A stretch of 64,000 nt of DNA, from contig CM069133.1 of the NCBI GenBank assembly GCA_035221665.1, forward strand, positions 44,702,001 through 44,766,000. The letters are read 5' to 3'. This DNA comes from Okamejei kenojei. Its lineage: Eukaryota. Positions 245-64,000 of the stretch are shown here, in pieces (position 1 is the first letter of the stretch; every line of letters starts with the position of its first letter). The position numbers and the translations under genes were made by a program. The notes beneath the pieces were generated by a model. That model made no database searches, was not told the origin of the DNA, and worked only from the letters and a program-made list of their open reading frames with translations.

Positions 245-710
245 CCAGTACAGGAAGCATGTGGAAGCTCTTTGGAGAGGGTGCAGAAAAGGTTTACCAG
301 GATTAGAAAGTATGAGCTATGAGGAGAGATTGGACATACTTGGATTGTTTTCTCTGGAGAGTCGCAGATTGTGGGAAAATCTAATAGAAGTATAAAAAAC
401 CATGAGAGGCAGAGATTAGGTCAACAGTCAAAACCTTTTCCCTAGGTAGAAATGACAAAGACTAGAGTGTATAGTTTTAATACGAGGGGCAGGTTATTTT
501 CTACATAGAGTGATGGGGCCTGGAATGCACTGCCAGAAATCAGATACAATAGGGCATCGAAGAGGCAATTCGATAGACACATGGATATGCAGGGAAGGGG
601 GAAATGTGGATCACGTGCAGACCGAAGAGGTTAGTTTACCTCGCCATCAAATTTGGTTGGGACATGATGGGCTGAAGGGCCTGTTCCTGTGCTGTACTGT
701 TCCTATCTTC
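245..710 (+). mobile_element. Old CR1 LINE 3' fragment (paralog at ~54530-55000)
   Basis: Degenerate match to the CR1 ORF2 end (ttggagagggtgcagaaaaggtttaccagg ... gggctgaagggcctgttcctgtgctgta). Confidence 0.7.
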
Positions 711-1096
711 AGTATAATATGAATTGATTTTATCTAATCCCTTAAAACTTTCAAAGCGTGCTGTTATCACATGTATAGATTCTAGCAAAATACATGCTAA
801 TTGTGTGAGGCTAACTGGTGTGTAGTTTGTTTATTTCCCTCAAACACCATTTGTTGCATTTGACACTTGCAAACCTTCAGGAAACTTTGCAGAAAATGTG
901 AAATTTGGGGCCATTGCATCCAGTGCATTTTGCGGAGATGGGAAAGTGGCTGTGGAAAGGGAGACATGAGTGTGGAGGGGATGAGCGCACCTGGGTGCAG
1001 GGGCAAAGTGGTCTCTTGTCAAGGCAGAAATAGGAGGCGACATAGAGATAAGACCTGAGGTGGGCATTGTGTTGAAGTTGGTAGAAATATCATAGA

Positions 1097-2036
1097 TTAT
1101 TACCTATATGAGGTAGTTTTACCGGGCAATATTAGTTGGTATTTTGACAGGTCCAAAAACGCGCAGTTTCCAGCGGGCAATATTACTTGGTATTTTTCTT
1201 CTTCCGGGTTCCGCCATTGACTTAACGTTGAAAAACTGCGGTCAATAACAAACATGAAATATCACATCCGGCGTACATCCGGGACACGAACCCGGCCAAA
1301 GTTCACCGCGAAGAATCAGCTCACGGCATCTAAACAAACATGGCAGCCTCCAGCAGTGCGAGATTCGCGTCTCTTGACGACGACGGAATTATTTTAATTT
1401 ACGTGCGGATAGGTAATAATTATAATATTGACTGGCTTCTTTCGGGAGACACCAGGAATATTGCCCGCACTGAAATCATATTGCCCTCGTCTTCGACTCG
1501 GGCAATATGATTTCAGTTTGGGCAATATTCCTGGTGTCTCCCTCAAGGCCAGTCAATATTATATTATTATTACCTATACAAGGTAGTTTTACTGGGCAAT
1601 ATTAGTTGGTATTTTGATTGGTCAAAAAACGCGCAGTTTCCAGCGGGCAATATTACTTGGTATTTTTCTTCTTCCGGGTTTCGCCATTGACTTTACGTAG
1701 AAAAACTGCGGTCAATCACAAAGATGAAATATTACATCCGGCGTACATCCGGGACACGAACCCGGCCAAAGTTAACCGCGAAGAATCAGGTCACGGCATC
1801 TAAACAAACATGGCAGCCTCCAGCAGTGCGAGATTCGCGTCTCTTGACGACGACGGAATTATTTAAATTTACGTGGGGATAGGTAATAATTATAATATTG
1901 ACTGGCTTCTTTCGGGAGACACCAGGAATATTGCCCGCACTGAAATCATATTGCCCTCGTCTTCGACTCGGGCAATATGATTTCAGTTTGGGCAATATTC
2001 CTGGTGTCTCCCTCAAGGCCAGTCAATATTATATAA
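1097..2036 (+). mobile_element. Head-to-tail tandem dimer (2 x 470 bp) of a Crypton-like non-autonomous element with a long terminal hairpin
   Basis: Units 1097-1566 and 1567-2036 are near-identical. Each ends in a ~160-bp imperfect palindrome and contains a short MAASSSARFASLDDD reading (ATG 1340) resembling Crypton tyrosine-recombinase N-termini. No TIRs and no obvious TSD beyond TTA-like ends. Confidence 0.6.
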
Positions 2037-2301
2037 ATGTTCACGTGGATGTGGAGGCTGGTGGGGTAAAAGATAAGGGCCAGTGGAACTCTAAACCTGT
2101 TCTGCCTGGGGGAAGAGAGGGGGGGAGAGCTGTACGAATGGAGGAGACCCAGGTGAGGGCATCATCCACAACTGTAGGGTGTTGTGGAGTGTGGTGAGCA
2201 ACTGCGTTTCCTCTAAAAGGAGGACATCCCAGATCTCCTAAAGTGGAAATCACCCATCTTGAAATCATCTCAAGAAGAGGTTTTCCACTCCCGGAGATCA
2301 C

Positions 2302-3030
2302 AATCAATCAATCACAATAATACTTTATTAGCCAAATATGTTTTGCAACATACGAGGAATTTCATTTATCAAGTCAATCATACAAATAAAAAGCAACGGA
2401 ACACACAAAATATATTTTAACATAAACATCCACCACAGTGACTCCTCCACATACGTCACTGTGATGGAAGGTGAAAAAAGGGTCAATCTCTTCCCGTATT
2501 TGCTCTTTCGCGGACGGGGGCCTCGAGCCTCCATTGACGGGATGATCTTGACTCCTGTAGCTGGTGGCATTTGGGGCTTCATCAGCTCTTGCGTCGGAGG
2601 GGTGTTAGATCAGACCCCTGGGTCGGGGCTGGTCGAACCTCTGCGTCGTTGGAGCTCCCAACCCGGCCTCTCCCGAGACTGCGAGCTCGATGGTAAAGTC
2701 TGATGGTCACGATTGGAACAATCCCAGGCAAGGGATCAGCTTCGATGTTAAGTCCAAGCCCCGCAGTGGGGCTCCAAAGTCAGTCCGAGAGGGTCTCCAG
2801 CTCCATTGATGTTAGGCCGCAGAGCGACTGGAGATATGACTCGGAAAACATCGCATCTCCGGCGAGGTAAGAGACTGGAAAAAAAAGTTTCCCCCGACCC
2901 CCTCCCCCTCCCCCTCCCCACACATAAAACAAACTGGAGAACATTTACACAAACTTTTAAAACATACAACAAATTTTTAAAAGGACGGAAAAACAGACAA
3001 GATTGTTGGTGAGGCTGCCAATCGTGCATG
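2302..3030 (-). mobile_element. Non-autonomous LINE-dependent retroelement with a Rex1-type 3' end
   Basis: Minus-strand 3' end gaaattcctcgtatgttgcaaaacatatttggctaataaa plus (tgat)n tail resembles the 3' end of the Rex1 LINE at ~37030-37090. GC-rich non-coding body. Confidence 0.7.
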
Positions 3031-4059
3031 GCCCCTGGTGGAACAGGCAGAATGGGTTTGGGGAATTGTCAGGTTGGTGGTTTTCGTGGAAAGTGATGAG
3101 ATGCGTTATGGGAAGGGAGACAGAGGTCTGCTGGCTGTTTGTAGGTCACTATATGATGAGGTGTTCAAAGAGCTGTCCAGTGGACACAACAAGGATGAAT
3201 GGAATAGATCCACCAGATGGTATGTCCAGAACGTGGGTGGATCTGATCTACGGTAGAAATGTGTGAACAAGTGCTGATGGAACTGTGAACATTTCACAAT
3301 TACCACCATGCTGCTCAATAAAACTTTGTTTCTTCACCTTTTCCCATTCCCACCCCAGCTTCTGCAGACTATTACAGGACGATATTATAGAATGCGATTC
3401 ACCAAGAGAATCAGATGAAAAGGCAGCCGTTTCGTATATCAGGACAGGAAAATAAAATGACTCCTTGACAAATAACAAGAGCAACACAGTAGACTGTAAA
3501 TCAAATGGCAGTAAAGACGAGGAAGGGGAGAAGACCAGGGTGGGGACATTAAAAAAGGGAGCGCTGTGAACAGAGGTTCAAGGTTCAGCCACTGATTCTG
3601 ATGTTTCTCTCTGTAATGGAGAAATTCAGGAAAGAGCTTAGATTGGAGTGGAGAAGTTGTACAAATATCAAGCCGCAAACAGAAATTGTTGAATAATTCA
3701 TAGACGGATCAAACAGAGCACAGGAAGAGGCACTCGGCCCATTACGTCCATTCTGACCATCCAATGCCCTCCAGTACTCATCCTACTTACCTGCACTTAG
3801 TCCACGAAGGGGAAGGGGAGGCGGTGGGTGGATTCACTAGCATTCTAGAAACTTCCACGGACACTCATCTTCCATCACACCACACGGTCAGGCCAGCAGG
3901 CTATGTTTACTCCAGATTTCTCCCTATCTCACTGGATCCCTCCTTATCCCTCTGGATCTCTTCCTCTCCCTCAGGATCTCTTACTCAAGACCTAACCATC
4001 TTCCTCAGGTTGCTTTTCCTCCATCATGAGCACTCGTTCTCCCTCAGGATCTCTCCCCT

Positions 4060-12249: not shown

Positions 12250-12575
12250 ATTGTTGGGTGTAAATTTTGCAGCATAGGGTGGAGATCTGAGCCAGAGGGC
12301 GACACCCTCATTGCATCTGCTAGTTCCACTCAGATTCAGCAAGGACGGGGACTGGGTGACTGAAATGCAATGTGTCAAAATGGACTTTGCCATTTGATGC
12401 CAGCTGACATTCTTGCAAAGTCTCTGGAGCCCTTTTACACTCTGTTTTAACCGCACAACTCAAGCAGCAAGGAGTCTTGGTCCCAGCGTGCCTGAGGGAT
12501 TTGAAGGCTCAATAAGAGAAGAGAATGTTTTTGATTTGCTTTTGCACTGCCTGTCTCCACTGATCATACGCATAT
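12250..12575 (+). pseudogene. Orphan, disabled paralog of the promoter region and signal-peptide exon of the Siglec-like gene
   Basis: Colinear with ~37545-37890. ATG at 12525 sits in the same gagaagagaATG context. There is a net 8-nt deletion and the donor gtaagt is replaced by atacgc. Confidence 0.8.
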
Positions 12576-16398: not shown

Positions 16399-18519
16399 TA
16401 AGGATTTTATCCTAAACTCATATCTTGAAGAGAGTTTATCTAAAGCATCAGGACCAGATGCACTTCCATAATTCCCTTGGAGTTTCCTTACACTTGTCTC
16501 CCTGTGACAGTTCTGTAGTTAACAACTGGCAAGGTGGTCTTTGCTTGTTGCTCAAGCTCATCATAATCTTCTCTAATTTTGCTTACAAAATCCTGAAGTG
16601 AACTGTACAAACTTGCACAAGTACTCAATAACAGTTTTGATTTTTGAATGGCTTTGTTGACGTTGTGGAAATGACCTAGCACACGGGTCCAAAAATGCAG
16701 CAAAAACACAAATTCTAGTTCTTCCATTTTCTGAAAAACATTGTTAGCTGAAAGCCTGGTATCACCCTTCACATTAGCATCTGAGTATAAATGATCAAGG
16801 GCATTGGTGACAGCACTGTAAGTTTCGAAAATAGCTTCTGTGGCTTTTGCATGTGCCTCCCACGTAGTGTCTGACAAATATTTAGGCACTTTTGACTGAG
16901 GTTGCAAAAATGATTTTAGAACTGCCCATCTCTTTGTGGAGGATGAAAAGAAGGTATACATTTCATTGCTATTTCCAAAAGAGTTCACTGCATCAAGGCA
17001 GCAATCAACAGCCAAACGGCCCACCAAATTTAATGAGTGAGCAGCGCATGGAATAAATCTTGCAAAGTTGTTTTCTTTTGAGGATTTCGAGGCATACCCT
17101 TGTATCTACCAGCCATGTTGGCAGCATTGTCATAAGACTGCCCTCGGCATTTTCTAAAGACAATCTCAAGCTCAGTAGTGAGATAGTTTAACACAAAATC
17201 AGCCATGCTTTCTCCTGAGTGGTCTTTCAGCTCAAGGAAAGTTAAAAATCGCTCACTTGGTAAACCGTCTTCAGGTGATACATATCTGATAATTAGTCAA
17301 CTGATCAGTATATGAAATGTCAGGGGTGGTATCCACTGACAAGCTGAAATATCCAGCCTTTCTCAAGTCAGCCGGAATTGCATCCTTAACTTTTTTTACC
17401 ATGAGTTGAATTATTTCCTCACATACAGTTTTTAACAAATAAGAGGGATTTCCTGATCTGGAGTTTCCATACCGATTGATAGAGCCAGTAAAAATTGATC
17501 AAATTTTGCAACTAGCTCTAAAAGACCAAGACAATTGCCGTTATTTGGAGTTCCAAATTGTTCATTGTCTCCTCTGAATGGTAAGCCTCATTCTGCAAGA
17601 GTGCATTTTACGGCAACAATTCACTCCATACATGCCGCCAGTAATGCTGCAGTGCTTTTATTTGCTCCTGTAGCTTTGAAGTTAACGTTTGCCTTCGCTT
17701 TCTTGTTAAGTAGGTCAACATGGCATTCCTGTGCTTCTCTGGGTTTTCATGAGTTTGGATAAGATAGGGGTTTCGCCAATCATCAAATCCTTCAGAAGCT
17801 AAAGATGTAGCAGAAGAATAAGATGCAATGTTTGGAAAGAGTTTACAAACAAAGCAATATATCCGGCCTTTTGAGGGAGAATACACAAGCCACTCTCGGC
17901 TATATGTTTCTCCATTGACTTTTGTTGAATAAAAAAGAGCTTTGGTGTAAAACATAGACTGATTTTTATACACTCGCTTGGAATTTGAAAATGGTCCACA
18001 ACGATGCTGAACTTGAGAGGTGCCACTTTCTACCCAATAGGATACGTCCTCATGTGATAATTCTGTCCACAAACCAACGTCTGTTGAAGTACATCTATAT
18101 TTGGCATCATCAATCAGTTCTATATTTTCATTTTGAACTGATTGACCATCAATCAGTTCTATATTTTCATTATGAGGAATATTAAAAAAAATATTTCTTA
18201 AAGAATTGTTCCTTATTGACAATTATATTGCAAAACCTGAATCAAATCTGAATCAAATCTGGCTAACTTATAACTGAAAAAGGCTAACTTATAACTGAAA
18301 AAAACAGGTTCACTTCTTAATAAACAGACAACTCACAAAGCAGTTTGGTAGACCAATTCAAAACTTTACTAATTATCGGCCGATGGAAGTAGCAAGGAAA
18401 ACAGACCTCAACCAAGTGAGCAACACAGACACTTGGCTGTCCTCTCTCCACTTCCCTGAACACAGACTTACATGGTATTCTATATTGTTGAGGCGGATGA
18501 TGTCCCGCCAGCAGTTTAA

Positions 18520-25490: not shown

Positions 25491-26340
25491 GAGGCCCACA
25501 GGAGCCGTTGGAGGAAGTGAAGGAGGGGGAGGAGCGACACCCGACCGGTAAGGTTAAAAATCGAGCGCGGGGCTTGTTTTTTCAGAGGCCCACAGGAGCC
25601 GTTGGAGGAAGTGAAGGAGGGGGAGGAGCGACACCCGACGGTAAGGTTAAAAATCGAGCGCGGGGCTTGTTTTTTCAGAGGCCCACAGGAGCCGTTGGAG
25701 GAAGTGAAGGAGGGGGAGGAGCGACACCCGACCGGTAAGGTTAAAAATCGAGCGCGGGGCTTGTTTTTTCAGAGGCCCACAGGAGCCGTTGGAGGAAGTG
25801 AAGGAGGGGGAGGAGCGACACCCGACCGGTAAGGTTAAAAAATCGAGCGCGGGGGCTTGTTTTTTCAGAGGCCCACAGGAGCCGTTGGAGGAAGTGAAGG
25901 AGGGGGAGGAGCGACACCCGACCGGTAAGGTTAAAAATCGAGCGCGGGGCTTGTTTTTTTCAGAGGCCCACAGGAGCCGTTGGAGGAAGTGAAGGAGGGG
26001 GAGGAGCGACACCCGACCGGTAAGGTTAAAAATCGAGCGCGGGGCTTGTTTTTTCAGAGGCCCACAGGAGCCGTTGGAGGAAGTGAAGGAGGGGGAGGAG
26101 CGACACCCGACCGGTAAGGTTAAAAATCGAGCGCGGGGCTTGTTTTTTCAGAGGCCCACAGGAGCCGTTGGAGGAAGTGAAGGAGGGGGAGGAGCGACAC
26201 CCGACCGGTAAGGTTAAAAAATCGAGCGCGGGGCTTGTTTTTTTCAGAGGCCCACAGGAGCCGTTGGAGGAAGTGAAGGAGGGGGAGGAGCGACACCCGA
26301 CCGGTAAGGTTAAAAATCGAGCGCGGGGCTTGTTTTTTCA
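25491..26340 (+). repeat. 9 x ~94-bp tandem monomer array in the CR1 5' UTR
   Basis: Unit gaggcccacaggagccgttggaggaagtgaaggagggggaggagcgacacccgaccggtaaggttaaaaatcgagcgcggggcttgttttttca; variation is almost entirely single-base indels, mostly in homopolymer runs. Confidence 0.95.
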
Positions 26341-26586
26341 GAGGCTTACCCAAATCCATAACGTTCCATTTGGAGAAGTGGGTTTTTTTTGGGGGTTTTT
26401 TTGAGGAAGCCGCTGATTGGTGGAAGAGGACCCGAGGAAGCAGCTGATTGGGTGCAACCCCGGGTTTACAATTTTACATTTCTGCCTTCTGGGAGTGAGG
26501 GATTCTGGGAGTTAGGGATTTAGTATTTAGTAGTAAAGTTTAAAGGGTAAGTTTTTGTGTTTTTTTTAGTAATTTGGGAGTAAGGT

Positions 26587-37544: not shown

Positions 37545-37834
37545 TGTTGCTGGTGCATTTTGCAATGCACCACAGATGGCTCAGCAGACAGAGGGTGAAG
37601 CCCTTGTTGCTGCTGTCAGTTCCACTCAGATTCTGCAAAGACAAGGACTGGGTGATTGAAATGCAAAGTGGACTTGTCCATTTGAAGCTGTCTGACAATT
37701 CTTGAAGTCTTGAGCTCTTTTACACTCTATGTTAACTGTAAAATTCAGAAAACTACAGGAAACAGCAAGGAGTCTCGGTTCTACTCAGCCAGTGGAAAGA
37801 CATACGGCATTTGAAAGCTCAACGAGAGAAGAGA
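37545..37834 (+). promoter_or_regulatory. Putative promoter/5' UTR of the Siglec-like gene
   Basis: Unique sequence just upstream of the leader ATG, with blocks conserved in the paralog at 12250-12524 (agttccactcagatt, ggactgggtga.tgaaatgcaa, ttttacactct, cagcaaggagtct). Confidence 0.5.
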
Positions 37835-37883
37835 ATGCTGTTTATTTTGCTTTGTGTCTTTGCACTGCCTGTCACCGCTAATC
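37835..37883 (+). CDS. Siglec-like receptor exon 1: signal peptide MLFILLCVFALPVTAN (phase 1)
   Basis: agaATG start, hydrophobic 16 codons plus 1 nt, consensus donor gtaagt at 37884. Confidence 0.8.
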
Positions 37884-37891
37884 GTAAGTAT

Positions 37892-45535: not shown

Positions 45536-45945
45536 GCTTGCAATGTCAGTGGTTGGGACATGGAGATACACCGGTCAAGGTGACGGGGAGTGAGGGTGGG
45601 GAAATAGCGCTGTGGTTCTGTACTTGCAAGTGCATCACCCTCACCATGAATACAAAGTACAACATTCAGCAGCTTCTGGTTTTTGAGCCGTGGAGAGGAT
45701 TCCAAGAAGAGCGGGGGTCCATAGGACACAAAATTATCTATCAAGCAACAAGTATTACAAAATGTGTCATTAATAAGAGAAACTCGCTACAAACCAATGG
45801 GGGTCCCGGCGGAAGATCGATGCTTCCATCATCATTAATCACTGAAAATACGGATACTAACAAGGCCTCATTTTCGTGTTGAGCTCTACAGAGCCAAACG
45901 GACAAAGTTTGGATGCCCAACATGGACTATCACAAGTATCATTGA
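45536..45945 (+). CDS. Siglec-like receptor V-set domain 1 (Siglec-15-like), multiple frameshifts
   Basis: Acceptor tctgtgtcttcacag. Frame-corrected reading WDMEIxPVKVTGSEG..SAVV..CK..HPHHEYK...RYKPMGVP..DASIIIN..DTNK..FRVEL parallels Siglec-15 WSMQVPPEVSAEAGDAAVLPCTFTHPHRHY...RFRLLGNP..DLSL...YFCRVEF (from memory). Donor not clean. Confidence 0.75.
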
Positions 45946-46966: not shown

Positions 46967-47466
46967 NNNNNNNNNNNNNNNNNNNNNNNNNNNNNNNNNN
47001 NNNNNNNNNNNNNNNNNNNNNNNNNNNNNNNNNNNNNNNNNNNNNNNNNNNNNNNNNNNNNNNNNNNNNNNNNNNNNNNNNNNNNNNNNNNNNNNNNNNN
47101 NNNNNNNNNNNNNNNNNNNNNNNNNNNNNNNNNNNNNNNNNNNNNNNNNNNNNNNNNNNNNNNNNNNNNNNNNNNNNNNNNNNNNNNNNNNNNNNNNNNN
47201 NNNNNNNNNNNNNNNNNNNNNNNNNNNNNNNNNNNNNNNNNNNNNNNNNNNNNNNNNNNNNNNNNNNNNNNNNNNNNNNNNNNNNNNNNNNNNNNNNNNN
47301 NNNNNNNNNNNNNNNNNNNNNNNNNNNNNNNNNNNNNNNNNNNNNNNNNNNNNNNNNNNNNNNNNNNNNNNNNNNNNNNNNNNNNNNNNNNNNNNNNNNN
47401 NNNNNNNNNNNNNNNNNNNNNNNNNNNNNNNNNNNNNNNNNNNNNNNNNNNNNNNNNNNNNNNNNN
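46967..47466. other. Assembly gap (500 N)
   Basis: Run of N. Confidence 1.
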
Positions 47467-48533: not shown

Positions 48534-48893
48534 GTGATAAACGACAGAGCATACATGGTGATGGGTGGAGGGTGCGATCTGCACACTGCCCTTGCTCCTT
48601 CGTCCCTCGACAGGAATCCCCGCTCCATCACCATCAGCTGGATGAAGGGAATCCATCAAAATGGTTGTTGTCTTTCGTCACACTTTCCCGAACCAGAGCA
48701 CATCGCATTCCTGAAAATGTAAATATAGGGGATCGATATGAGATGCGTGGGAAACCTTACGCAGGAGACGCCTCCATCAGAGTGAGGCAACTCAAACTGG
48801 GTGACGGCAGCGATTACTCCTGTCACGTTTCTGTAGGAATTTCAACGGTTGATGACTGTGACTCAGGATGAGATGAAAAACTGCAGGTTGTGG
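48534..48893 (+). CDS. Siglec-like receptor V-set domain 2, frameshifted
   Basis: Acceptor ctctgtgcag, donor gtaagg. PCSFVP, ITISWMKG, RYEMRGKPYAGDASIRVRQLKLGDGSDYSCHV, DEMKLQVV. Confidence 0.88.
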
Positions 48894-49745: not shown

Positions 49746-50317
49746 ACTTCTTGTATTCAGTATCTTGGACCAATGAAAGCAAGCATACTGTACACGTTTT
49801 TAACATGTTGCCATTTTCAGAGAGTTATGGAATTGGATCCCAATATTTTTTTCTGTACATTAGTAATTTTAAGGGGTCTTGCCCTTGTCCTTGTTCTACT
49901 TTCCACTTGCATTCAAACCTCTCAAAGTCAACACTTCACACGTGTTCGGATCAAACTCCATCTGGCCATTTCTCTGCCTATATCTGTATTTAGATTAAAA
50001 AATTGCAGTATCTTTCTACAGTTCTACAGTTATCTGCCTTCCTCATGATAGTCTTGCACTTTCAATAAGCACACTACAGACCATGCGTGGGTTTTTGATA
50101 TTTGAGCTGCCACTTATGTGGACTGTACATTTGCAATTGACTTCACTTTCTCATGTTTGAACAGAGGTGAACGCCACTGTCTCATCTCTAATGTCACTGT
50201 TGACAGCAGTCTTGTGCCATCTCCAGTGATATTGTCATCAGCCTATGGTTATGGTGGTATGGGTCAGGTGATATTGACTTCTGAGGCAGTTCTGGCCAGT
50301 TCTTGTACAAACAATAA

Positions 50318-50939: not shown

Positions 50940-51303
50940 ATGGAAAGAAGAAGACATCCATGGTGATTGGGAAGAGAAGAGATTCATCCATACTGCCTGC
51001 TCCTTCAGCCCCTTGAACAAGAATACCAGCCCCATCACTGTCCGCTGGATGAAGGGGAATCCACGGGAGGAGTCCCACAGTTTTTAATCACACCCACCCC
51101 CACTCTGTGAACCGTCCCTACACTGTCACTGTAAAGGGAGGAGGTCGATATGAGCTGGTGGGAAAACTAGACCAGGGAGACGCCTCTATCAGAGTGAAGG
51201 AGCTCAGAGTGAACGACAGCAGTGACTATTTCTGTCACGTTTGGGTCAGGAATTCCACACAGGAGACGGTGACATCAGGATGAGATGAAACTGGAGGTTG
51301 TGG
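50940..51303 (+). CDS. Siglec-like receptor V-set domain 3 (duplicate of domain 2), with a few frameshifts
   Basis: Acceptor gtctttacaag, donor gtaagg. CSFSP, ITVRWMKG, RYELVGKLDQGDASIRVKELRVNDSSDYFCHVWV, DEMKLEVV. Confidence 0.9.
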
Positions 51304-51967
51304 GTAAGGAAGATCTGTCTGTGTTGTGCTGTGGTGAACGATAAAATCACATTAACAACTGTAAGAGGGACATGAGATCCACTGACAGCTGGAGCCGAGA
51401 TCGGCCCACTCCATTGTAGGTTCCAAACCCTTGCCCTGGGCTTCCCTTGCTCAGCACTGCCCCCAGTGGTTGGACAACAGTGCTGATTCCAGCCAGAATT
51501 GCACGGAGCTCCCTGAAGCAGGATCAGAGATTCAGAACCACATTCATCTGCTGAACCTCCAGTCCCTGTGTCTGTGACATGGTCTGTGTTGCAAAGATCC
51601 ACAGACTGCCCTGGGGTATTTACATCCGTCTCTTTTCATTCACATTGAGTCCGGGAACCTGTATGTTCTCTCACTGAATATTACACAGACAGTACAGCAC
51701 AGGAACAGGCCCTTTGGCCCGCAATATCTGTGCAGAACATAATGGTACTGTAAGTTAAACTAATATCATCTGCCAACACATGATCCATATCCCTCCATTT
51801 TCTGTAGATCCATGTGCTTCTTAAAAACACTATCATATCTACAAATATTTCACTGCAGTCTCCTAGGGTGTGTTCTTCCAATCCCCATTCTGAAGGACTC
51901 TATCTGCACACACACCATCAACAGTGATTAATTCAATTAATTTAATTTAATTTCTTCCTTCTCCAAG

Positions 51968-52338
51968 TCCCAGCCACCATCCTGAAGCTGTCTGTTGTGA
52001 GCGACAATGTAACTGGAGAACACACCCTCGTGTGCTGTGCTGAAGGGAAGCCCCCTGCAAACATCACGTGGATCGACCCAGGGAACAGCGCACTGCCCGG
52101 GAACAGTAGTGAGATGACAGTCACGCATGATCCAGAGAAACTACTGACTGTGGGAAAGATGCTTCACCCCAGACTGCCAGGGAAATACACGTGTGTGGCT
52201 GTGAATGAGTACCAGAGAGACACGCGTGAGATCCGCCTATTCGAGGATGGACTAAGAGCGTTGGCCATTCGAACTGCCATTTATGCGGTCTATTTTCTTA
52301 TAATTGGCTTCACATTCTGTTGGTTGAAGAGAGGGTGA
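51968..52338 (+). CDS. Siglec-like receptor C2-set Ig domain plus transmembrane helix (intact frame)
   Basis: Acceptor ttcttccttctccaag, phase 1. VPATILKLSV...LVCCAEGKPPANITW...GKYTCVAVNEY resembles the Siglec-15 C2 domain; TM LAIRTAIYAVYFLIIGFTFCWL followed by KR. Confidence 0.92.
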
Positions 52339-53385
52339 ACGTCGCCATCTCAGCTCCATTGCTGGGTGTCAACAGGAGGGATGCTGCACCTCCACTGGCA
52401 GTGGCAGGTTCTGGTGATGTGGATCAGGCAGTGTAACTTCGGAGAGAAACAATGCTACATTCCCCCAGCTATGACCGTGTGTCTGTGGGGTACATGGAGC
52501 TGTCCTCACGTCAGTCCGACTCAGCGGCTCCTCCCTCAGTAGTGTATCCCATACATTTGCAACTGCATTGCTGCTGATTCCTGCATCCGCATAGAACTCA
52601 AATTTCACATGCCTCTTAGCTGTCTTCCTTCATCCTAAACCATGGCTTAATCTCTACCTTAGCTGACAGAGGCCTTGGCAGCTTTGAATCGTTTTCATGA
52701 ACTTCTTTTTGCTAATTCCTTCCCCAAGGCAGAGCAAGAATAGATTTTCCCTGATCCTCATTTCCCACCCACTAGTCTCTGCATTCAATGGATCAACCTT
52801 TATAGCTTCTGTTACCATCGGTGCACGTACACCAACAGACACATCTTCCAGCTGCCTACACTTTCAGCATCCTGAAGGGTCCATTCCCTTTGCGACTCCA
52901 TCATCTGCTCTTCCATGCCATTCAACCATTTACTCAGAACAGTGCATGGTGTAATTTTCCAGGTTAGACTCTGCAATCAACAATATCGGTTTGCTCACTT
53001 TCTCTGTCTGTGTCAAGGCTGGTCAGCTGTGTTGTAGATAATCCATCTGCATTATGAACTTGTTATCCTCTCTCTACGGGCACGGCCTGATCTGTGGCCA
53101 TCTCCTGTAGCTCTGGCTTCCATTTGCAGTTTCTACGTGTTCTCTTTCTAAATGCTCAGATAACTTTGTCAATCATTTATTACTATGGAAACCAGACATC
53201 TCCCTATAAGACATTCCTTTTTTTGCTGTCCCTCTCTCTCTCTATCTCACTCTTTCTGCACCAACAATCTTTTTTATTGTCTCAGCTGTTCAATCAGAAG
53301 CACAAAACTCTTTCTCTCTGCAAAGATGCCACCTGACCCGTTGAGTATCCTCTGCACTCTGGGGAGACATTCCTTTTCCTTGCAG

Positions 53386-53420
53386 ATCACAGGTGTCCCC
53401 TGCATTATGGAGCGTTGCCT
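53386..53420 (+). CDS. Candidate cytoplasmic exon (DHRCPLHYGALP if phase 1)
   Basis: Acceptor ccttttccttgcag, donor gtaagc, LxYxxL motif. Phase does not match the available TM donor by 1 nt. Confidence 0.4.
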
Positions 53421-53522
53421 GTAAGCTGAAAACCGCATAATATTTTTTTCGCACTAATTCTAAGAGTGCAAATTTTATTCTGCATCTCAAATTTTTCACT
53501 GGTGATTTGTGAATTCTGCAAG

Positions 53523-53684
53523 GGAGAATTTCCATTACCGGAACATCCGGAATATGGGCTTTACTCAAATTGGACTGGTGGTTGGGTTCAAGGATTGGGC
53601 ACGTCTTCTAACATGAGACGAGATCTCCTGGTAAAGAGTGATGACTACATTGACGAATCTGGTATCCAGTTCACTTGTGTCTGA
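53523..53684 (+). CDS. Candidate terminal cytoplasmic exon (GEFPLPEHPEYGLYSNW...TCV*)
   Basis: Phase-0 compatible with the preceding candidate exon; Tyr-containing open frame; weak acceptor. Confidence 0.3.
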   Translation, partial: GEFPLPEHPEYGLYSNWTGGWVQGLGTSSNMRRDLLVKSDDYIDESGIQFTCV

Positions 53685-55391
53685 AGCCAGTGTGCTAAAC
53701 TTTAATTAAGGCACAAAGGTGAAATGGCGGTTGGCTAAAATAGTTTCAAAATGAAAGAAAATGCCGACAGTAATGTTGTGAAGATTATTTATAGAGGATT
53801 GGAGATTGGAAGACAGAAGTAAACATCTTAAAAAATTATGAGGACAGAATTGATGGAGAAAATTGGTAAATATAAAAGGGATAAAAGGAGCTTCTGCAAG
53901 TATAAAAAAAGGAACAGAGTATCCAAAGCAAACAATGGATGAAAGCACCAAAAGTACAGCAGATACGCTGTCTGACGATACAAAGACAGGTGGCTTAGCA
54001 AGTGATGAGGACACAATGGGCCGGCACAGACATATAGATGGTTTAAGTGAGAGGGGAAAAAAATAGCTGAATTAGTATGATGGGGGGGAAATGTACCCTG
54101 TAATGTTACATTAAAACATCCTTACTTTTATACACTCATCTTGTGCAATAAAACCAGCATTCCATTTGTCTTTACAACTGCTTACAATACCTGCACGCAA
54201 GTCTCTTGTGTTTCACATGCACATACCCAATTTTAGGGGAAAATGAAATGGCAAGTTATTATTTGATTGGTAGGTGAATACAAACCATTTCCTAACTGTC
54301 TTCCACATATCTTAACACCATCACCCTCATTCTACGGCCCACTGGTTCCTATTAGATTTCATTCCCCCAATATCAGTGCTTGAATTTTGCATACCTACCT
54401 CAATGTGGTATTTGATTAAAGATCTTCTGAACTTGCAAACACACTGCACCCACACATATTTTCCTACCAATTACATACATAGAAAAAAAAACTCCCAGCA
54501 GGGTTGTCGAACCTTGAATTAAAAAAAATAGCCCCAGTACAGGAAGCATGTGGAAGCTCTTTGGAGAGGGTGCAGAAAAGGGTTACCAGGATTAGAAAGT
54601 ATGAGCTATGAGAAGATGTTAGGACATACTTGGATTGTTTTCTCTGGAGAGTTGGATATTGAGGGAAAATCTGATAGAAGTATAAAAAATTATGAGAGGC
54701 AGAGATTAGGTCAACAGTTAAAACCTTTTCCCCAGGTAAAAATGACTAAGACTAGAGGGTATCGCTTTAATACGAGGGGCAGGTTTTTTTCTACATAGAG
54801 TGATGGAGCCTGGAATGCCCTGCCGGGTTTAGTGGAATCAGATACAATAGGCCATCCAAGAGGCAATTAGATAGACACGTAGATATGCAGGGAAGGGGGA
54901 TATGTGGATCACATGCAGACAAAAGAGGTTAGTTTACCTTGCCATCAAATTTGGTTGGGACATGATGGGCTGAAGAGCTTGTTCCTGTGCTGTACTGTTC
55001 CTATCTTCAGTATAATCAAATTAATTTTATCTAATCCCTTAAAACTTTCAAAGCGTGCTGTTATCACATGTATAGATTCCAGCAAAATACATGCTAATTG
55101 TGTGAGGCTAACTGGTGTGTAGTTTGTTTATTTCTCTCAAACACCATTTGTTGCATTTGGCACTTGCCAACCTTCAGGAAACGTTGCAGAAGATGTGAAA
55201 TTTGGGGCCATTGCAACCAGTGCATTTTGCGGTGACTGGCAAGTGGCAGTGGCAAGGGAGACGTGAGTGTGGAGGGATGAGCGCACCTGGGTGCAGGGGC
55301 AAAGTGGTCTCTTGTCAAGGCAGAAATGGGAGGTGACATGAAGATAGACCATGGGTGGGCATCGCGTTGAAGTTGGTGGAAATATCATAGA

Positions 55392-55861
55392 TTATTACCT
55401 ATACGAGGTAGTTTTACCGGGCAATATTAGTTCGTATTTTGACAGGTCCAAAAACGCACAGTTTCCGGCGGGCAATATTACTTGGTATTTTTCTTCTTCC
55501 GGGTTTCGCCATTGACTTTACGTTGAAAAACTGCGGTCAATAACAAAGATGAAATATTACATCCGGCATACATCCGGGACACGAACCCGGCCAAAGTTCA
55601 CAGCGAAGAATCAGCTCACGGCATCTAAACAAACATGGCAGCCTCCAGCAGTGCGAGATTCGCGTCTCTTGACGACGACGGAATTATTTTAATTTACGTG
55701 CGGATAGGTAATAATTATAATATTGACTGTCTTCTTTCGGGAGACACCAGGAATATTGCCCGCACTGAAATCATATTGCCCTCGTCTTCGACTCGGGCAA
55801 TATGATTTCAGTTTGGGCAATATTCCTGGTGTCTCCCTCAAGGCCAGTCAATATTATATTA
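55392..55861 (+). mobile_element. Single-copy Crypton-like 470-bp element at the paralogous site
   Basis: Same flanks (catagatta / aatgttcacgtgg) as the dimer at 1097-2036. Confidence 0.6.
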
Positions 55862-56124
55862 ATGTTCACGTGGATGTGGAGGCTGGTGGGGTAAAAGATA
55901 AGGGCCAGTGGAACTCTAAACCTGTTCTGCCTGGGGGAAGGGAAGGGGGGGAGCTGCACGAATGGAGGAGACACAGGTGAGGGCATCATCCACAACTGTA
56001 GGGTGTTGAGGAGTGTGGGGGGCAACCGCATTTCCTCTAAAAGGAGGACATCCCAGATCTCCTAAAGTGGAAATCACCCATCTTGAAATCATCTCAAGAA
56101 GAGGCTTTCCACTCCCGGAGATCA

Positions 56125-56865
56125 CAATCAATCAATCACAATAATACTTTATTAGCCAAGTATGTTTTGCAACATACGAGGAATTTCATTTATGAAGTCA
56201 ATCATACAAATAAAAAGCAAAGGGACACACAAAATACATTTTAACATAAACATCCACCACAGTGACTCCTCCGCATTCCTCACTGTGATGGAAGGCGAAA
56301 AAAAGTTAAATCTCTTCCCTTATTTGCTCTCCCGCGGTTCGGGGCCTCGAGTTCTCCGTTGATGGAATGATCTTGAGTCGTGTAGCTGGCATCATTTGGG
56401 GCCCCGCATCATCAGCTCCTGCGTTGGGGGGATGTCAGTTCCCCCGCGCCAGTGATCGGACCCCCTCGGGGCTGGTCGAACCTCTGCATCATTGGAGCTC
56501 CCGACCCGGCCTCTCCCGAGACTGCAAGCTCGATGGTAAACTCCGCAGGCCGCGACTGGAGCGATCCCAGGCAAGGGTTCAGCTTCGATGTTAAGTCCAC
56601 ACCCCACAGAGGGGCTCCAAAGTCAGTCTGATGAGTTCTCCAGCTCCATTGATGTTAGGCCGCAGAGCGACCGGAGATGCAACCCGGAAAACATCGCATC
56701 TCCGGTGAGGTAAGAAACTAAGAGAAAAAGTTTCCCCCTCCCCCCCTCCCCCTCCCCCCACATGAAACAAACCGGGGAACATTTACACAAACTTTTAAAA
56801 CACACTAAAAATGTTAAAAAGGATGGAAGAACGGACAAGACTCTTGGTGAGGCTGCCAATCATGC
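56125..56865 (-). mobile_element. Non-autonomous Rex1-type retroelement (paralog of 2302-3030)
   Basis: Same position in the duplication, same termini. Confidence 0.7.
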
Positions 56866-57450
56866 ACCGCCCCTGGTGCAACAGGCAGTATGGGTTTGGG
56901 GAATTGTCAGGTTGGTGGTTTTGGTGGAAAGTGATGAGATGCATTATGGGATGGGAGACAGAGGTCTGCTGGCTGTTTGTAGTTCACTACATGAGGAGGT
57001 GTTCAAAGAGCTGTCCCATGGACACACCAAGGGTGAATGGAATAGATCTATCAGATGGTATGTCCAGAACATGGGTAGATCTGATCTACGGTAGAAATGT
57101 GTGAACAAGTGCTGATGGAACTGTGAACATTTCACAATTACCCCCATGCTGCTCAATAAAACTTTGTATCTTCACCTTTTCCCATTCCCACCCCAGCTTC
57201 TGCAGACTATTACAGGACGATATTATAGAATATGGTTCACCAAGAGTATCAGAGAATAAGCGGCAGCCCTTTTGTACCAGGACAGGAAAATAAAATGACT
57301 CCTTGACAAATAACAAGAGCAACACAGTAGACTGTAAATCAAATGGCAGTAAAGACGAGGAATGGGAGAAGACCAGGCTGGGGACATTAAAAAAAGGAGC
57401 ACTGTAAACAGAGGTTCAAGGTTCAGCCACTGATTGCGGATGTTTCTCTC

Positions 57451-58117
57451 TTTTGTTAATTATTTTTATTAGAAGTAAGTACATAATAAAAGAAGAATAT
57501 ACATGTCACATACATTCTTAATATTATTAATATTAACAATTATATCTTAATTGTACTATGCATTTTTTTTATTTTTAATACAGGTAGGAATTAATGGAGA
57601 AAAATAAAGTAAAAATAGAAAATCAAAAAGATGAATGAGGTGTTAAGCAGGTTATACATCATTGGAGATATATCTATGGTTTATTATATGTGATTCTTCA
57701 CCTATTCTTTCATTCAGGCTTCAGTCAGGTTCTCGCACCGAGCCATTTTAACCCTTTAAATATTCAATAAATGGAGACCATATCCCTCTGAGATGATCCA
57801 GCTTGTCCAGTCGGACAAGTCTTAATCTTTCCAGGTGAAGTGTCTCCGACATTCCTGTAATCCACATTTTGATTGTGGGGGATGTAAGACCTTTCCAAAA
57901 TTTTAATATTAATTTTTTCCCAATTATTAAACTGTAATCGATAAAAATTATTTGATTCGTTGTTATTAATTGATCTGTTTCTAATATTCCTAATATTATT
58001 AATTTTGAGTCAGGAACCAAATTCGTATTAACAACATTCGAAATTATCTTAAATATTTCTGTCCAAAAGTTAGTAATTTTTATGTAGTTTGTGAATGAGT
58101 GCGTTAAATTAGTAAGA
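57451..58117 (-). mobile_element. L1 LINE 3' fragment
   Basis: KKLILKFWKGLTSPTIKMW...WSPFIEYL is the L1 ORF2 C-terminus; AT-rich 3' UTR. Confidence 0.9.
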
Positions 58118-58876
58118 TTAAATGAGAACTTACCAGTTCGAAGTTTGATTGTTATTTTATGAGGAGTAACGATGAGGGATTACGTGAAGAAGCCCTGCCT
58201 GGCGCATGATCGGCATTAATTCAAAGCAGCGGCATGAAAAAACACAGAACCAATATAGCCGGAGTAAGATAGTAAGACTGTACATAGATTGAGAACTACC
58301 AGTACGATCATTTATTTTATGAGGGTTGGGAGTGGAGGGCACGTAATCCCTCAAGTTTTTTCATTATAAAAGAATGAAAATAATGCCCTTTCTATTGAAA
58401 GGCAAATTTATCACCAAAATATCAATTGATAATATAATTTGATAATATAAACAAAGCAACAATTCCAGAGAACCCAACACTGCGTGTCTAAACCTGACAC
58501 CATGACTGGTTCTTTGTAACTTTAAAATTTATTTTACATCCTCCTACGGCCTTTAATCATTGCTCGAGCGGCCCACCCTGTGCCATTCCTTTGAATGTGT
58601 CTAACTCCTTAATGGAGTGATTTTCCACATCTCAATGTCTACTTCCACTGAGTCTTAAACATGTTTTAACTATCTAGAATGTAATTAATAATAATAATTA
58701 TAACTTTATTACGGACTCAAGGTCCAGACAAGGGGCAACATTACATTAAAAATGCATTGCATATCAAATATCATAAATATATATAAAATCATGGTAAATC
58801 ACATAAAAACACCATAACTTAGATATTTTTTTAAAAACCCACAATACTTAAGTTAAAAATCCAGAGTAAAAAATGA

Positions 58877-61690
58877 TCAATGTCGTACAACGAGACAACG
58901 ATACCAGTGTCTCCACAACTGGGATTCGTAGCGTGTAGTGCTAACCCTTATGTTTGTCAAGGCCACAATAAGCACATTTTTAGAGTAATTTATCCTGCAA
59001 ATGAATTTATACATGTGGTGTCTTAGGATAGCTTCTAAAGTACTGACTCCTGCAGCCACAAACATATTACTGGCACTACACCATCTTGGTTGCCTTAGCA
59101 ATGTTCTCATGGCATTGTTATAAGCAACATTTAGTCTCTGCATACTTGCCTTTAAATAGTTCGACCACAGGTGTGCAGAGTAAAGGGGTGTGCAGTATGC
59201 TCTAAATAAAGAGATCTTCACCACGTCTGCACGCGCACCAAATTTATGCAAGAGGATATTTGCCTGTATATACAGCATACGTCATTGCCTATAAATATCC
59301 TCATCATCTGTCATTTGTTCTGTAATAATATGCCCTAGATATTTTATCTTATTACAGACACTAAGATTGTTGTCAGACAATTTAAAATCAGGATATTTTA
59401 GGCTTTTATTCTCTTTGGTTCTACAGACCATAACAGCACTCTTACTAGCATTATATTTAATGTCATGTTCAAACCATACACGGAACATGCAGGAAGGAGC
59501 TGCTGGAGACCAGCGCTAGATGGACTAAAGACGACAAGCTCATCTGCATACATAATATGGTTCACTAATATATTACCAATCACGCACCCAGTGTTACAGG
59601 CTTTCAATTTTTTAGACAGATCATCAATATATAGATTAAAAAGGACTGGGGACAAAATTCCCTCTTGTCTAACACCATTGCTAACCCCAAATGGGGCTGA
59701 GACCCTATTGCCCCATTTTATTTGCATAGTCTGGTGGGCATACCAGTAGGCCAGTATTCTCACAATGTATTTAGGCACCCCTCTTTGACGCATTTTATCA
59801 AACAGCTCTCTGTGATTAACACGGTGAAAGGCTTTGGAAGCATCAATAAAGCACATAAGGATTGAAGAGTTTTTGCCTCTATATTTGTTTACAATCTCCT
59901 TTAGGGCATATATGCATAAGTCAGTGCCATGTTTAGATTTAAAGCCAAACTGGTTATCTGTGGAGTTAACAAACTCATGTATTCTATCCAGCAGAACTCT
60001 TTCTAAGACTTTTGACAATATGCTGGCTAAAGCTATGGACCTGTAATTATTTAGACTGCCTACTTTACCTGCTTTGTCCTTAATAACCGGCACTAACAGG
60101 ACAGACAACATTGAGTCTGGTAACATGCCATGTATCATAAAGCCAGTAAAACAAATAGCTAGGAGAGGAGCTTTCCTCATACTCGCATACTTAAGATGTT
60201 CAACAGAGATATGATCCAAGCCACTTGCTTTGTTGTTGGACAGCTTGTTCATGGCATGATACACCTCATGTGACCATCGAGTCATTACTCTTAATATTGT
60301 CCACCCTATACAAGTCTCCTTGGACACAATTGAATAAAGTGCTATAATGTTGTCGGCATAACTCCGCGATATTAGCCATTCCGGAGATTCCATCTACAGT
60401 ACATGGTAGAGATGTTTTGCAACTGCTAAGAGCTCTCACTTCTTTCCAAAAAGCTGTAGCATTGTTACTTAGCAGCTTCTTAGCCATGGAATCAGCCCTC
60501 ATAGCTTGCTCATTTGTACAGATGAAGCGAACAGCATACTTATACCTTGCATTAGTGAGCTTCTTGTGCTCAGACACAGGCCCCTGTCTGGGTCTACCTG
60601 CCATAGCCCATGCTTTGGTGGCTTCACGGGCTTCAGTATGATACTCAGCTACATACTTATTCCAGCCAGGTCTGATGTTATGTGTCTTATTTTTATGCTT
60701 GCAGTAGGACTTACTGCCTACATATAAGGCGCTTACTATATCTTTATACATGGAGCAGATATCTCTCCTATGCTTCATATCTTTACAGTTAACATTACTA
60801 CATATTATTGCATCTTTAGGTAGATGAATATTGCTTAAGGATTTATTTGTATGGGCATAATAGGCTAGGATGGCGTCCTTTGTAAGCGTTGACCAGTCCA
60901 GTTTTTCTGTGTTAAGGCTATTTCTATCTCTGGATACCACAGGTATGTGTTCAACATTTATTGTCATAGCAACAGGTATATGATCAGTCATTGCTGCCCC
61001 GTACAGAATGCTCATACACCCAAATGAGGCATGTGCATCAGCTGTACTAATACAGTGGTCCAGCCATGATGTGGTGTGCCAGGCCTCACTAATATAAGTA
61101 TAGCTATCTGTAGGTAAAAGCACTTTGCTTGATAATATTAAATTATTATCTTGACAGAACTGAGCCATATGATTGGCAAATAATGAGTTCCTATCTGAGA
61201 TATCTGCATTCATATCCCCAATGACATATACGGTACAATAATTATTGTTTTGAATGAAAGAATAGATGAAAGCAGGTCTATTTAAATATTCATCCTCATT
61301 CTGATGACATTCATAGGGTGTATATACATTCAGGATAACAAATTCCTTATTGTTGTGAATAAAGTGTATGGCAATGCACCAATCAACATCAAGCTGAATC
61401 ACATTTACTGATGAGTCAAGCTTCTTGTTCCATAGAATGGCCACCCCACCTGGTATCCTACCTCTGACTATTCCCATGCCAAGGTCAGTTGTAGACTCCC
61501 CAACCCCGTGAAAGTTGTCATTGAGAGAACTGAGTTTGTCATAGTCTTGCTTCGCTAAGAATGTCTCTTGCATACATAGTATGCCACAGTTCTCCAGGAG
61601 GTTGTCAACAACTGAGCGGCGAGCTTTATCCCCTGCACTCTGGCCCAAATGCAGGCCACGACAATTGTATGATAGTACTCTAATGTTCAT
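58877..61690 (-). pseudogene. Proto2-like ORF2 (APE endonuclease plus RT), few frameshifts
   Basis: SYNCRG, CMQETF, GDMNA, WLDH, TDHIP; NYRSIAL, QFGFK, FIDASKAF, GVRQEGILSP, MYADE; VAYNNAMRTLL...CSASNMF. Confidence 0.9.
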
Positions 61691-61699
61691 TTAGTAAGA

Positions 61700-62875
61700 C
61701 TAGTGAGTGCCCCTAGCACCAGCAGGTATACTCATTCGCCCCGCGGCAGGCGCAGTGCTTGATCCGATTACTCCAACCCTGCGCGGCTCGTAATAGCGCC
61801 GTACAAATGCCCCTTCTGGCCAGATCTCCGGATTGTACATTTCGCCAACCTCATTGCATTCCGCAGATACTTTAAATGAACTGTATCTACTGTGTACATT
61901 GTCAATCTTTTGACAGGTAACCTCACGGCCAAGTTTTTCATTAAGATAGACAGATAAAGTTCTGACGTCTAGATCTGGTGAAAACGTGGAGGCAAAAACA
62001 CTCACCAGCTTAGTCTTAATCATTTTGATGTTGCCCGCAGCTCCGGTACCAATAGTAGGCATAGCATTACTGGATTTCTTTATCTGCCCGGTGGACAATT
62101 TTGGCTTACGAACAGTGTTGTCTGGAGCATGTCGTCGACCCTTTTTCACAACATGACTCCACTTTGGAGAGTCTTGCAACGTTAGACCATTGGGACTATT
62201 CTCCACGTTTAATGCAAGGCCCTCCGCCACAGCCCTCACTCCAACAACTAAGCCAGAGGCTCCTGCCCGTGCAGCTCCCAGTGCTGTCTCTGCCATGCCA
62301 ATGGTTCCATCCAACACCGCCAATGCATCTGGACCACCGCCCCGAGACAGGTCAGTGTTGTGCTCCAATGCACACACTGGAGTAGTGATCAAGGTGCGCT
62401 CCAATGCACCCACTCAGCGATCAAATTCCACCGTGATGGCACGAAAATCTTCGCTTATATCAGCCTGTAGCTGCATGATGTGTTTCATTGAACAGACCTC
62501 AGCGTACAGCTGCTCCATTCTCCCAAGTAGGCTCGAGACATCTATGTTAGAAAATGTCACCGGCGGCAGTTCATCCAAGTAGTGAGAGACAAATCTAGGA
62601 GTATTCTCCGCACACTCATTCATTACTTTAAGGCAACTCTTTATGTTGTTTATGTCTTTCTGTGCCCCTTTATGGGAGACGTTCCGCTGTGTAGTGGGGC
62701 AGAGTTCAAACAGAACTTTCTTCGAGGACTCTATCCACTCAGAGTCAAAGGTATTTGCGGCCAGAAGGACGATCTCATCCTGGCTTAATGTCTTAATCTT
62801 TACAGCAAGAAAATTAAGTAACTCATCCTCGACAGTAACCTTACCGTCAACAGTCTTGTAGATCACAGGCTTCAT
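61700..62875 (-). pseudogene. Proto2-like ORF1 (~391 codons, one in-frame TGA at 62414-62416)
   Basis: MKPVIYK...ELLNFL...PRFVSHYLDELPPV...YSSFKV...WPEGAFVRRY; the two track ORFs are in the same frame. Confidence 0.8.
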
Positions 62876-64000
62876 TCTAGACCTGCCAAGACGAGGTGCA
62901 ATGCCCGCTAACTTCGCCTGTCTACTTGCTGCCCATGGCCGATGCACCAGCTCTCCCGTCGCCTCTTGCCCGGCACCAAGTTCCAGGTTTTCACTGCTCC
63001 ACGCTCTGGGTCTCTGCTGTTCCAAGCTCCGGGCTCCGCTGCCTGACTCCAAGCACCACTGCTCCCCAGCCCAGGTCGGGCCCGTCTCGGACCACAGCTC
63101 CGGCTGTTCACCGCCTGAACTTGGTGCCCCTTCCCCCGGGCCTGGACTGTGACTCTCTCCCGGCACTGCGCTGCCGTTAAGGACCAGGGTTTTCTTCCTG
63201 CAGCAACATCCAGGTGACATTCGCCACTCCTCGCAGGGGTAAGTAAGTTGTTTTTTTGTTTTTTTTCGGGCACTAAGGACACAAGTTTGACTTTGCCGCC
63301 AGGCGCGAGAACGTGACCGTAGTGTGTGTAAGATAGTGTTAATTATCAAGAACCATCAGTTTTTACTGATACTTAATGTGATTTTTGTGTGTAATAAGTA
63401 GTGCTGTCTGCACTCTTATGCTGATACTAAAGTCATGAGCATTATTACTTTCAATGTTAATTTTTTGAATTATTGATAGAATTGGAGTCCATTGCCTAAG
63501 GCAAGACAGGACTATGCCTATATATATATTCCTTTTACATATCGGGATATTACGGATGAGCCCGATAAATTCTTGGTCAGCAATTTGTCCGAAATAGGAC
63601 GATAAACACTATGAGCCCTATTATTGGCCCTGTCACTTAGATGCTGAGAAAAAATGCAATCCACAAGGAACTCCCATGTATCTAATACTGATAAAATAAC
63701 TTTTACTGTCTACAAAAGACTTCCAATTTCTTATAAAAACAAAATATTGTTTTTTAATGCTATTTCTCCAAATTGCAAGTATAACATTCCTTTTGTACAT
63801 AATTGTTATATTGTTAAAACATTCATAGACCTCTTTGACTATCAAACTGTTATAATGGTCTGGTCAAACATGCAGATAACCAAATTCATATCTTCATGCC
63901 ATGGATGAATTTGTACAACAATAAATTACTTCAACTATGAGTCGTCATAACTTGTTCAAACATCACTCTCAACATTAATGAGAACCATGACGTCCGGTTT

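Follow-up and report, generated by a model that had tools for sequence, protein, structure and literature searches.

A candidate activating receptor with an outer transmembrane arginine in a Siglec-15-like cluster of the skate Okamejei kenojei

Siglec-15 is described as a conserved DAP12-coupled Siglec, and paired receptors with Arg-type activating members are an already known design; Siglec-14 uses Arg. The adaptors FcRgamma (gamma), CD3zeta (zeta) and DAP12 are present in cartilaginous fish. SIGLEC15 has been described with the C2 domain and the transmembrane (TM) segment directly adjacent (PMC13711574). In the paired Siglecs 5/14 and 11/16 and in PILRalpha/beta, according to the excerpted part of PMC13358205, near-identical ectodomains are combined either with an ITIM tail or with a basic TM residue and a short tail. 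The activating Siglecs named in excerpts from three reviews (PMC13233462, PMC6890642, PMC6288428) use DAP12 only, via Lys or Arg. Passages of PMC13107469 describe an upper-helix Arg that binds the Asp pair of gamma/zeta dimers in CD89, NKp30 and NKp46, a central Lys in all DAP12 partners, a Tyr of TCRbeta that joins the Arg-Asp-Asp network, and an Arg used by NKG2D for DAP10. NKp30 (NCR3) is described in passages of PMC6514059 and PMC7409301 as having one IgV domain, a TM Arg (Arg143) and zeta/gamma partners.

The DNA analysed here, referred to as the window, is a stretch of 64,000 nucleotides from O. kenojei, in which an initial annotation made from the sequence alone had proposed an activating receptor with a Siglec-type ectodomain and an NKp30-like TM helix. 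The reading favoured here, with a probability of roughly 0.6, is that the window gene is the adaptor-dependent activating form of a Siglec-15-like cluster, that its Arg would couple to FcRgamma/CD3zeta, and that its helix would have originated in batoids from a neutral helix. The features of the locus are collected in Table 1.

Table 1. Features of the Siglec-15-like locus, in window positions
Feature	Positions	Strand	Basis
Leader exon, intact, GT donor at 37884; putatively assigned to the Arg-type gene	37835..37883	+	tblastn with P0008, translation
V0, N-terminal Siglec-15-like V exon, many indels, ends approximate	45536..45935	+	tblastn
CGT at the Siglec essential-Arg place, R-V-E-L next	45875..45877	+	V0 read; relatives CRVEL
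Assembly gap of 500 N separating V0 from V1; could conceal an exon or gene boundary	46967..47466	.	sequence
V1, second V exon, frameshifted; His at the essential-Arg place	48534..48893	+	Pfam V-set E 2e-4
Decayed Arg-type TM copy; TGA (50103-50105) in place of the Arg codon; no preceding C2 exon found	50091..50171	+	tblastn of P0001 E 7e-4
V2, membrane-proximal V exon; three 1-base indels vs spliced contig; His replaces the essential Arg; GxG absent	50940..51303	+	Pfam V-set E 6e-7
Single exon: C2/I-set Ig domain, short stalk and TM helix, open frame	51968..52335	+	ORF, Pfam
Predicted TM helix, 23 residues	52258..52326	+	hydropathy; helix in P0001 AlphaFold model
TM Arg codon CGA	52270..52272	+	translation; 19 residues before cytosolic Lys (18 between)
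Tyr one turn below the Arg, same helix face	52282..52284	+	invariant in 7/7 helices of Arg(-19) type
Cytosolic part	52327..52436	+	pieces in two other frames without Tyr, resembling P0001 and P0027 tails
3' flank, duplicated at window 1-3612, 91-93% identical; tandem unit about 54 kb	54303..57451	+	self-comparison

By tblastn, three V exons lie upstream of the C2 exon, unlike the one V and one C2 of Siglec-15, and they would be spliced jointly in a chain that spans the N gap and the decayed TM copy. The codon for the essential Arg lies in V0, which is frameshifted in the window and beyond the N gap; V1 and V2 carry His there. The decayed Arg helix sits in the intron between V1 and V2, and run X5 has TCA instead of TGA at its Arg-codon place. 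Judging by this copy, duplication of whole gene ends is suggested as the way in which the V tandem grew. Behind the intact helix, the TGA at 52336 probably stems from the assembly, the alternative being a splice donor near 52334; related models run through the possible donor into a short tail without Tyr, and in P0001, P0002 and P0005 the tail is 29 residues long and free of Tyr. The ITIM tails of seven relatives gave no match under E 0.15 when searched against 52339-64000 (11.7 kb). The tail of the window gene is likely to be short and Tyr-free, judged from these comparisons.

No gene other than the Siglec-15-like one was recognised in the window. A decayed second copy of the leader exon region is found at 12290-12568 (70% identical to 37586-37886), and the Rhinoraja models P0003 and P0008 take in pieces of the duplicated flank as false exons. 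Judged from translations, minus-strand ORFs of 313, 237, 474 and 331 aa at 58877-63355 are LINE-like (endonuclease, reverse transcriptase and leading ORF), as are many other fragments in the introns. Two minus-strand ORFs of about 205 aa at 16488-18222 resemble, by eye, a hAT-type transposase fragment.

Two homolog searches yielded 30 proteins, all of them chondrichthyan and many named Siglec-15-like; they stem from gene models, and in several a signal peptide is missing. The nearest relatives of the window gene were skate proteins (P0001, 86%). When P0001 was searched against the PDB, the top match among the best 60 of 99 matches was Siglec-15 (7ZOZ; E 3.9e-16, 62 bits, with the next match at 40 bits), and the same structure was the top match for P0028, which is V-only (E 2.7e-12, 50 bits; next 27 bits). 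In the PDB search the essential Arg in the first V domain of the relatives aligned with that of Siglec-15. The window's own pieces matched 7ZOZ weakly (E 0.03 and 0.004). C2 and TM are coded by one open frame (51968-52335), the adjacency described for SIGLEC15. The central TM Lys of the Siglec-15 family is absent from the window gene and present in 10 of the 26 TM-bearing relatives, and the window gene is therefore a Siglec-15 paralog and not Siglec-15 itself. These comparisons indicate that it very probably belongs to an elasmobranch Siglec-15-like receptor cluster, and the Siglec-type ectodomain of the initial annotation was borne out, 7ZOZ being the best PDB match for relatives P0001 and P0028.

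Structural searches were less informative. Siglec-15 was joint first in a fold search (Z 14.1, rmsd 2.5, 114 aligned), in which generic V/C2 folds are not discriminating; it was not among the matches listed by Foldseek, and NKp30 was not among the matches listed in either fold search. One profile search was set aside as circular, the alignment A2 containing mammalian Siglec-15-like rows. No published description of an elasmobranch Siglec-15-like cluster or of its Arg helix was found in a search whose reach excluded most subscription papers.

Twenty-six of the 30 proteins contained a TM segment and could be typed by helix: five Arg(-19), one Trp variant, ten Lys(-14), two Arg(-21) and eight neutral. 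The four models without TM (P0006, P0010, P0028 and P0029) were left out. P0009 was typed neutral by eye, and P0030 was counted as neutral, its Arg(-22) preceding the 21-residue hydrophobic run. Five of the eight neutral-helix members carry ITIM-like motifs. The true Lys-type and ITIM-type members of the family had been overlooked in the earlier reading of the window. Where Siglec-15 types carry Lys, two distant relatives, P0075 and P0084, show an Arg, inside the helix or at its beginning. At the place of the essential Arg, seven Lys-type paralogs (P0011, P0012, P0017, P0018, P0021, P0024 and P0026) have CLV instead of CRV; CRV is kept by the ITIM-type paralogs and by Mustelus P0020 and P0035. 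From these residues, the DAP12-type (Lys) form may have lost sialic acid binding.

In a tree of 32 C2 domains the grouping was largely by species, with starred species clades, and not by helix type; the Arg, ITIM and neutral genes of Rhinoraja fell together in one starred clade. The Lys-type genes of skates formed their own starred clade across two species, which indicates that homogenisation is incomplete, and the Lys-type stingray and devil ray genes formed a clade of their own. C2 identity was 99% for the ITIM/Lys pair of Heterodontus, 96% for the Heptranchias pair, and 88-95% between Rhinoraja Arg genes and ITIM or neutral genes. In the window's own organism, two spliced contigs track V2 and C2 and then depart from the window at 52249; in X6 there are 3 substitutions in 283 nt, and record 29 of X6 is gap-free across 51967-52249. 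Their departure at 52249 fits an expressed paralog with another helix. A near-identical ectodomain common to an ITIM-bearing paralog was found among the relatives, and in the window's organism the contigs are consistent with one. The cluster has the pattern of a set of paired receptors, with central-Lys, ITIM-tailed and Arg helices on ectodomains grouped largely by species.

The 16-mer of the initial annotation, LAIRTAIYAVYFLIIG, is the plus-strand translation of 52261-52308, and translation of 52201-52400 reads through to GLRALAIRTAIYAVYFLIIGFTFCWLKRG followed by a stop. The helix text, with its Arg near the outer end, was confirmed by translation and by DNA contigs: that of run X1, possibly the same sample as the window, spans 52242-52444 with 0 substitutions and 2 gaps (record 7; gap places not listed), and that of run X5 spans 52227-52444 with 2 substitutions. 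The Arg falls inside the best Kyte-Doolittle windows of 19, 21 and 23 residues alike, so that it is predicted within the membrane and not outside it, a placement on which the earlier reading had depended. In the AlphaFold model of the Rhinoraja ortholog P0001, one helix (residues 212-244) takes in this Arg as residue 219. A second Arg lies 5 residues further out, and the window helix has no Lys.

The motif R-x3-Y-x-V-x-F-L was found in four of the five Rhinoraja paralogs (P0001, P0002, P0003 and P0005) and in sawfish P0027. In the fifth, P0004, Trp replaces the Arg, and in P0027 Val replaces the Ala of YAV; the expected retention of Arg and YAVxFL in paralogs and orthologs was seen in most, with these two departures. 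From skates to sawfish, 15 of the 22 columns of the Arg-type helix are invariant and the Arg is kept in 6 of 7 rows (16 of 22 in total); the neutral helices diverge widely. The motif was absent from the most hydrophobic segment of all 142 further representatives (P0031-P0172). A homolog search with the TM region returned five candidates, each from Rhinoraja, but failed to recover the known sawfish relative, which marks it as insensitive. The helix query gave one chance match in the PDB (E 5.4), and an ESM Atlas match for the helix (score 0.75, lead-level) was dropped.

Matches to this helix were found among the neutral helices of the family. Without gaps, it matches the neutral ITIM paralog P0014 at 13 of 25 positions (0 of 5000 shuffles), with Trp opposite the Arg, P0013 at 11 of 25 (2 of 5000) and P0015 at 9 of 25 (9 of 5000). 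The signal was weak against P0008 (83 of 5000 shuffles), and none was found against neutral skate P0007 (2314 of 5000), P0030 or any Lys type. Because of the ungapped homology to the family's neutral helices, it is highly likely, judged by alignment, that the Arg helix arose inside the Siglec-15-like family. The helix had been called not Siglec-15-like, which holds in that an outer Arg replaces the central Lys and fails in that homology links the helix to neutral helices of the family.

A second Arg-bearing helix type, with the Arg at -21, occurs in P0031, P0022 and P0023 and is derived from the neighbouring ITIM gene. In the fused model P0031, the Arg(-21) unit and the ITIM unit share 202 of 210 ectodomain residues (96%), and the Arg helix matches that of its own ITIM partner at 15 of 27 positions, Hemitrygon P0022 at 19 of 27 and the window at 3 of 27. 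Since the P0031 helix is near its own partner and far from that of the window, the outer Arg appears to have been gained twice in batoids, separately in the stingray-type genes, where the Arg at -21 may be just interfacial.

An outer Arg, no central Lys, conservation and a likely Tyr-free short tail fit an activating receptor. Together with the Siglec-15-type ectodomain, these features leave the activating role that had been proposed for the window gene probable. Given such a role, gamma/zeta would be the probable partner, by analogy with other receptors and from the position of the Arg only. Of the alternatives, the one that survives best, though it is unlikely, is an activating receptor whose Arg couples to DAP12 or DAP10, as in other activating Siglecs. 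The activating Siglecs named in the review excerpts all use DAP12 through Lys or Arg, and NKG2D, in the cited passage, uses Arg for DAP10; however, the same passages of PMC13107469 give all DAP12 partners a central Lys, the Arg is displaced outward by 5 residues relative to the Lys of the family (-19 vs -14), and a Lys-type gene is already kept by the family in the same species. Six adaptor gene symbols gave 0 matches in the text of an elephant shark supplement, an uninformative text search.

Against an adaptor role stand the replacement of the Arg in P0004 and the 18 mostly hydrophobic residues beyond the Arg, which could span a thin membrane and leave the Arg interfacial. The protein would then be a short-tailed decoy or adhesion form, and the decayed copy at 50091-50171 also points this way. 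This is rather improbable, as the Arg, the Tyr and 16 of the 22 columns show little or no change between skates and sawfish while the neutral helices diverge widely, and the hydrophobic windows take in the Arg.

A link to NKp30, the more surprising claim, is unlikely. The comparison used the human NKp30 13-mer quoted in the initial annotation, taken as it stands there, and the window helix is identical to it at 7 of 13 positions (counted by eye). At least six identities beside the Arg have a p of about 5e-4 by composition and occur in 1 of 1018 real TM 13-mers, a p that holds for one comparison and is weaker once the choice among many known receptors is counted. Three of the six NKp30-like residues beside the Arg (Leu -3, Phe +8 and Leu +9) are already present in neutral P0014; with these set aside, and the Ala not kept in sawfish, the Arg, Tyr +4 and Val +6 are left. 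Arg and Tyr share one helix face. The description of the helix as NKp30-like thus stands as a local likeness somewhat above chance, with half of the non-Arg matches found in a neutral paralog. A text search found 0 papers that contain a 7-residue piece of the quoted sequence. The Arg lies in the upper half of the TM, as it does in NKp30 according to passages of PMC6514059 and PMC13107469.

One way to read this likeness is that an NCR3 helix was recombined into a Siglec-15-like gene in early batoids, which would make the gene a Siglec-NCR3 chimera, or that both descend from an ancestral R-x3-Y-x-V-x-F-L zeta/gamma docking helix; if true, either would tie an MHC-linked NK receptor to Siglecs. 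It is very improbable. Set against the 7 of 13 identities and their p of about 5e-4 per comparison are the ungapped homology to the family's neutral helices, the coding of TM and C2 in one exon, and the loss of the Ala of YAV in sawfish. The G strand's GxG motif, described for VJ-type V domains in the excerpt of PMC11599192, was not found in the V domains, of which V2 ends in QDEMKLEVV and those of the relatives end alike. The three NCR3 genes of sawfish are on chr34 at 5.1-5.2 Mb (PMC10751288 supplement rows), and the last feature listed for that chromosome is at 19.83 Mb; the sawfish Arg-type P0027 and its paralogs are on a 104-Mb contig (104,354,160 bp), which places the sawfish ortholog on a chromosome other than that of NCR3. 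MHC linkage, judged on the sawfish ortholog P0027 alone, was not found. A mis-annotated shark NCR3 was rejected, since Siglec-15 is the best PDB match and sawfish NCR3 is on another chromosome. Of the two options that had been offered, an evolutionary link between NCR3 and Siglec-15 is not supported, given the homology to neutral helices, the missing GxG and the position of the sawfish ortholog, and convergence is the better one. The NKp30 likeness is likely convergence rather than kinship, as far as sequence comparison can say.

Frameshifts affect each of the three V exons as they stand in the window. The contigs of two DNA samples showed 0-2 substitutions against the window over most long pieces, but gaps were present; base 51274 was left out in four of the four runs compared, and a spliced contig had 3 gaps in the V2 exon and 0 in C2. 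A 94-bp tandem repeat at 25491-26345 (9.1 copies) offers a gauge of assembly indel noise, and its copies differ by 1-base gaps only (12 gaps and 0 mismatches in 767 nt). Because of the contig gaps and these repeat copies, the frame breaks at sites covered by contigs are likely assembly errors; V0 lies outside contig coverage. Both DNA samples also contained a further copy of the helix region that differs by 12-13 substitutions, in keeping with the tandem duplicate (91-93%) at either end of the window. No RNA-like contig over the Arg helix was found among the contigs compared, which is no evidence either way on expression. That this copy is a pseudogene with the helix as a leftover is very improbable: three V exons are out of frame, a TGA stands behind the helix and V0 lies beyond the contigs, but contigs of two samples show gaps at the window's frame shifts (51274 absent in all four runs), the 94-bp repeat copies differ by 1-base gaps only, and both the leader and the C2-TM frame are open.

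In the preferred reading, that of an adaptor-dependent activating form of the Siglec-15-like cluster, the outer Arg would be buried and would pair with the Asp pair of an FcRgamma or CD3zeta dimer, and the Tyr one turn below it may contribute to the polar contact, an analogy drawn from the Tyr of TCRbeta in the PMC13107469 passage. Surface expression of the receptor would depend on gamma/zeta, its signalling would run via their ITAMs, and it would answer ligands that engage its ITIM-bearing twin, which has the same ectodomain, and would oppose that twin. The helix would have arisen in batoids from the neutral helix of the family and not from NCR3, and its likeness to NKp30 would combine convergence on an adaptor-facing helix face with residues inherited from the neutral helix.

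Siglec-15 in sharks and rays appears to have expanded into a cluster of paired receptors that comprises ITIM, Lys and Arg forms, and if the Arg form uses gamma/zeta, there would be adaptor switching within one family. A claim milder than the NCR3 link, and likelier, would make the window gene the first member of the Siglec family wired to FcRgamma/CD3zeta, the outer Arg having been gained twice in its cluster's family; it is tentative and falls somewhat short of even odds. If the Arg form does use gamma/zeta, the natural R-to-W variant and the variants of independent origin could be used to test what beyond the Arg sets adaptor choice.

Compared with known systems, the window gene is like NKp30 in having an Arg in the upper helix half and, locally, 7 of 13 residues of the quoted human sequence. 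In human NKp30 there is one VJ-type IgV domain and the gene is MHC-linked, whereas the skate gene has several V exons and a C2, lacks GxG, and has a sawfish ortholog that is not on the MHC chromosome. Two Arg-type partners of gamma/zeta, CD89 and NKp46, are alike in the Arg near the helix top and in a tail that likely has no signalling motif; their ectodomains are unrelated, and the skate helix lacks the polar residues that CD89 has one turn above its Arg. Human Siglec-15 (7ZOZ) has the closest ectodomain by sequence among the PDB matches listed, and the two share one C2 adjoining the TM and would share an N-terminal V with an essential-Arg codon, while the Lys-type paralogs of the cluster also have the central Lys. 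Unlike Siglec-15, the window gene has extra V domains without the essential Arg and carries its basic TM residue as an outer Arg, not as the central Lys, and it sits in a multi-gene cluster with ITIM members. A parallel in design is offered by the paired Siglecs and PILR, in which near-identical ectodomains are likewise joined to an ITIM tail or to a basic TM residue and a short tail. For those receptors the coupling described is to DAP12, and their Siglec pairs belong to the CD33-related group, whereas the skate cluster is Siglec-15-derived and has both Lys and Arg activating types.
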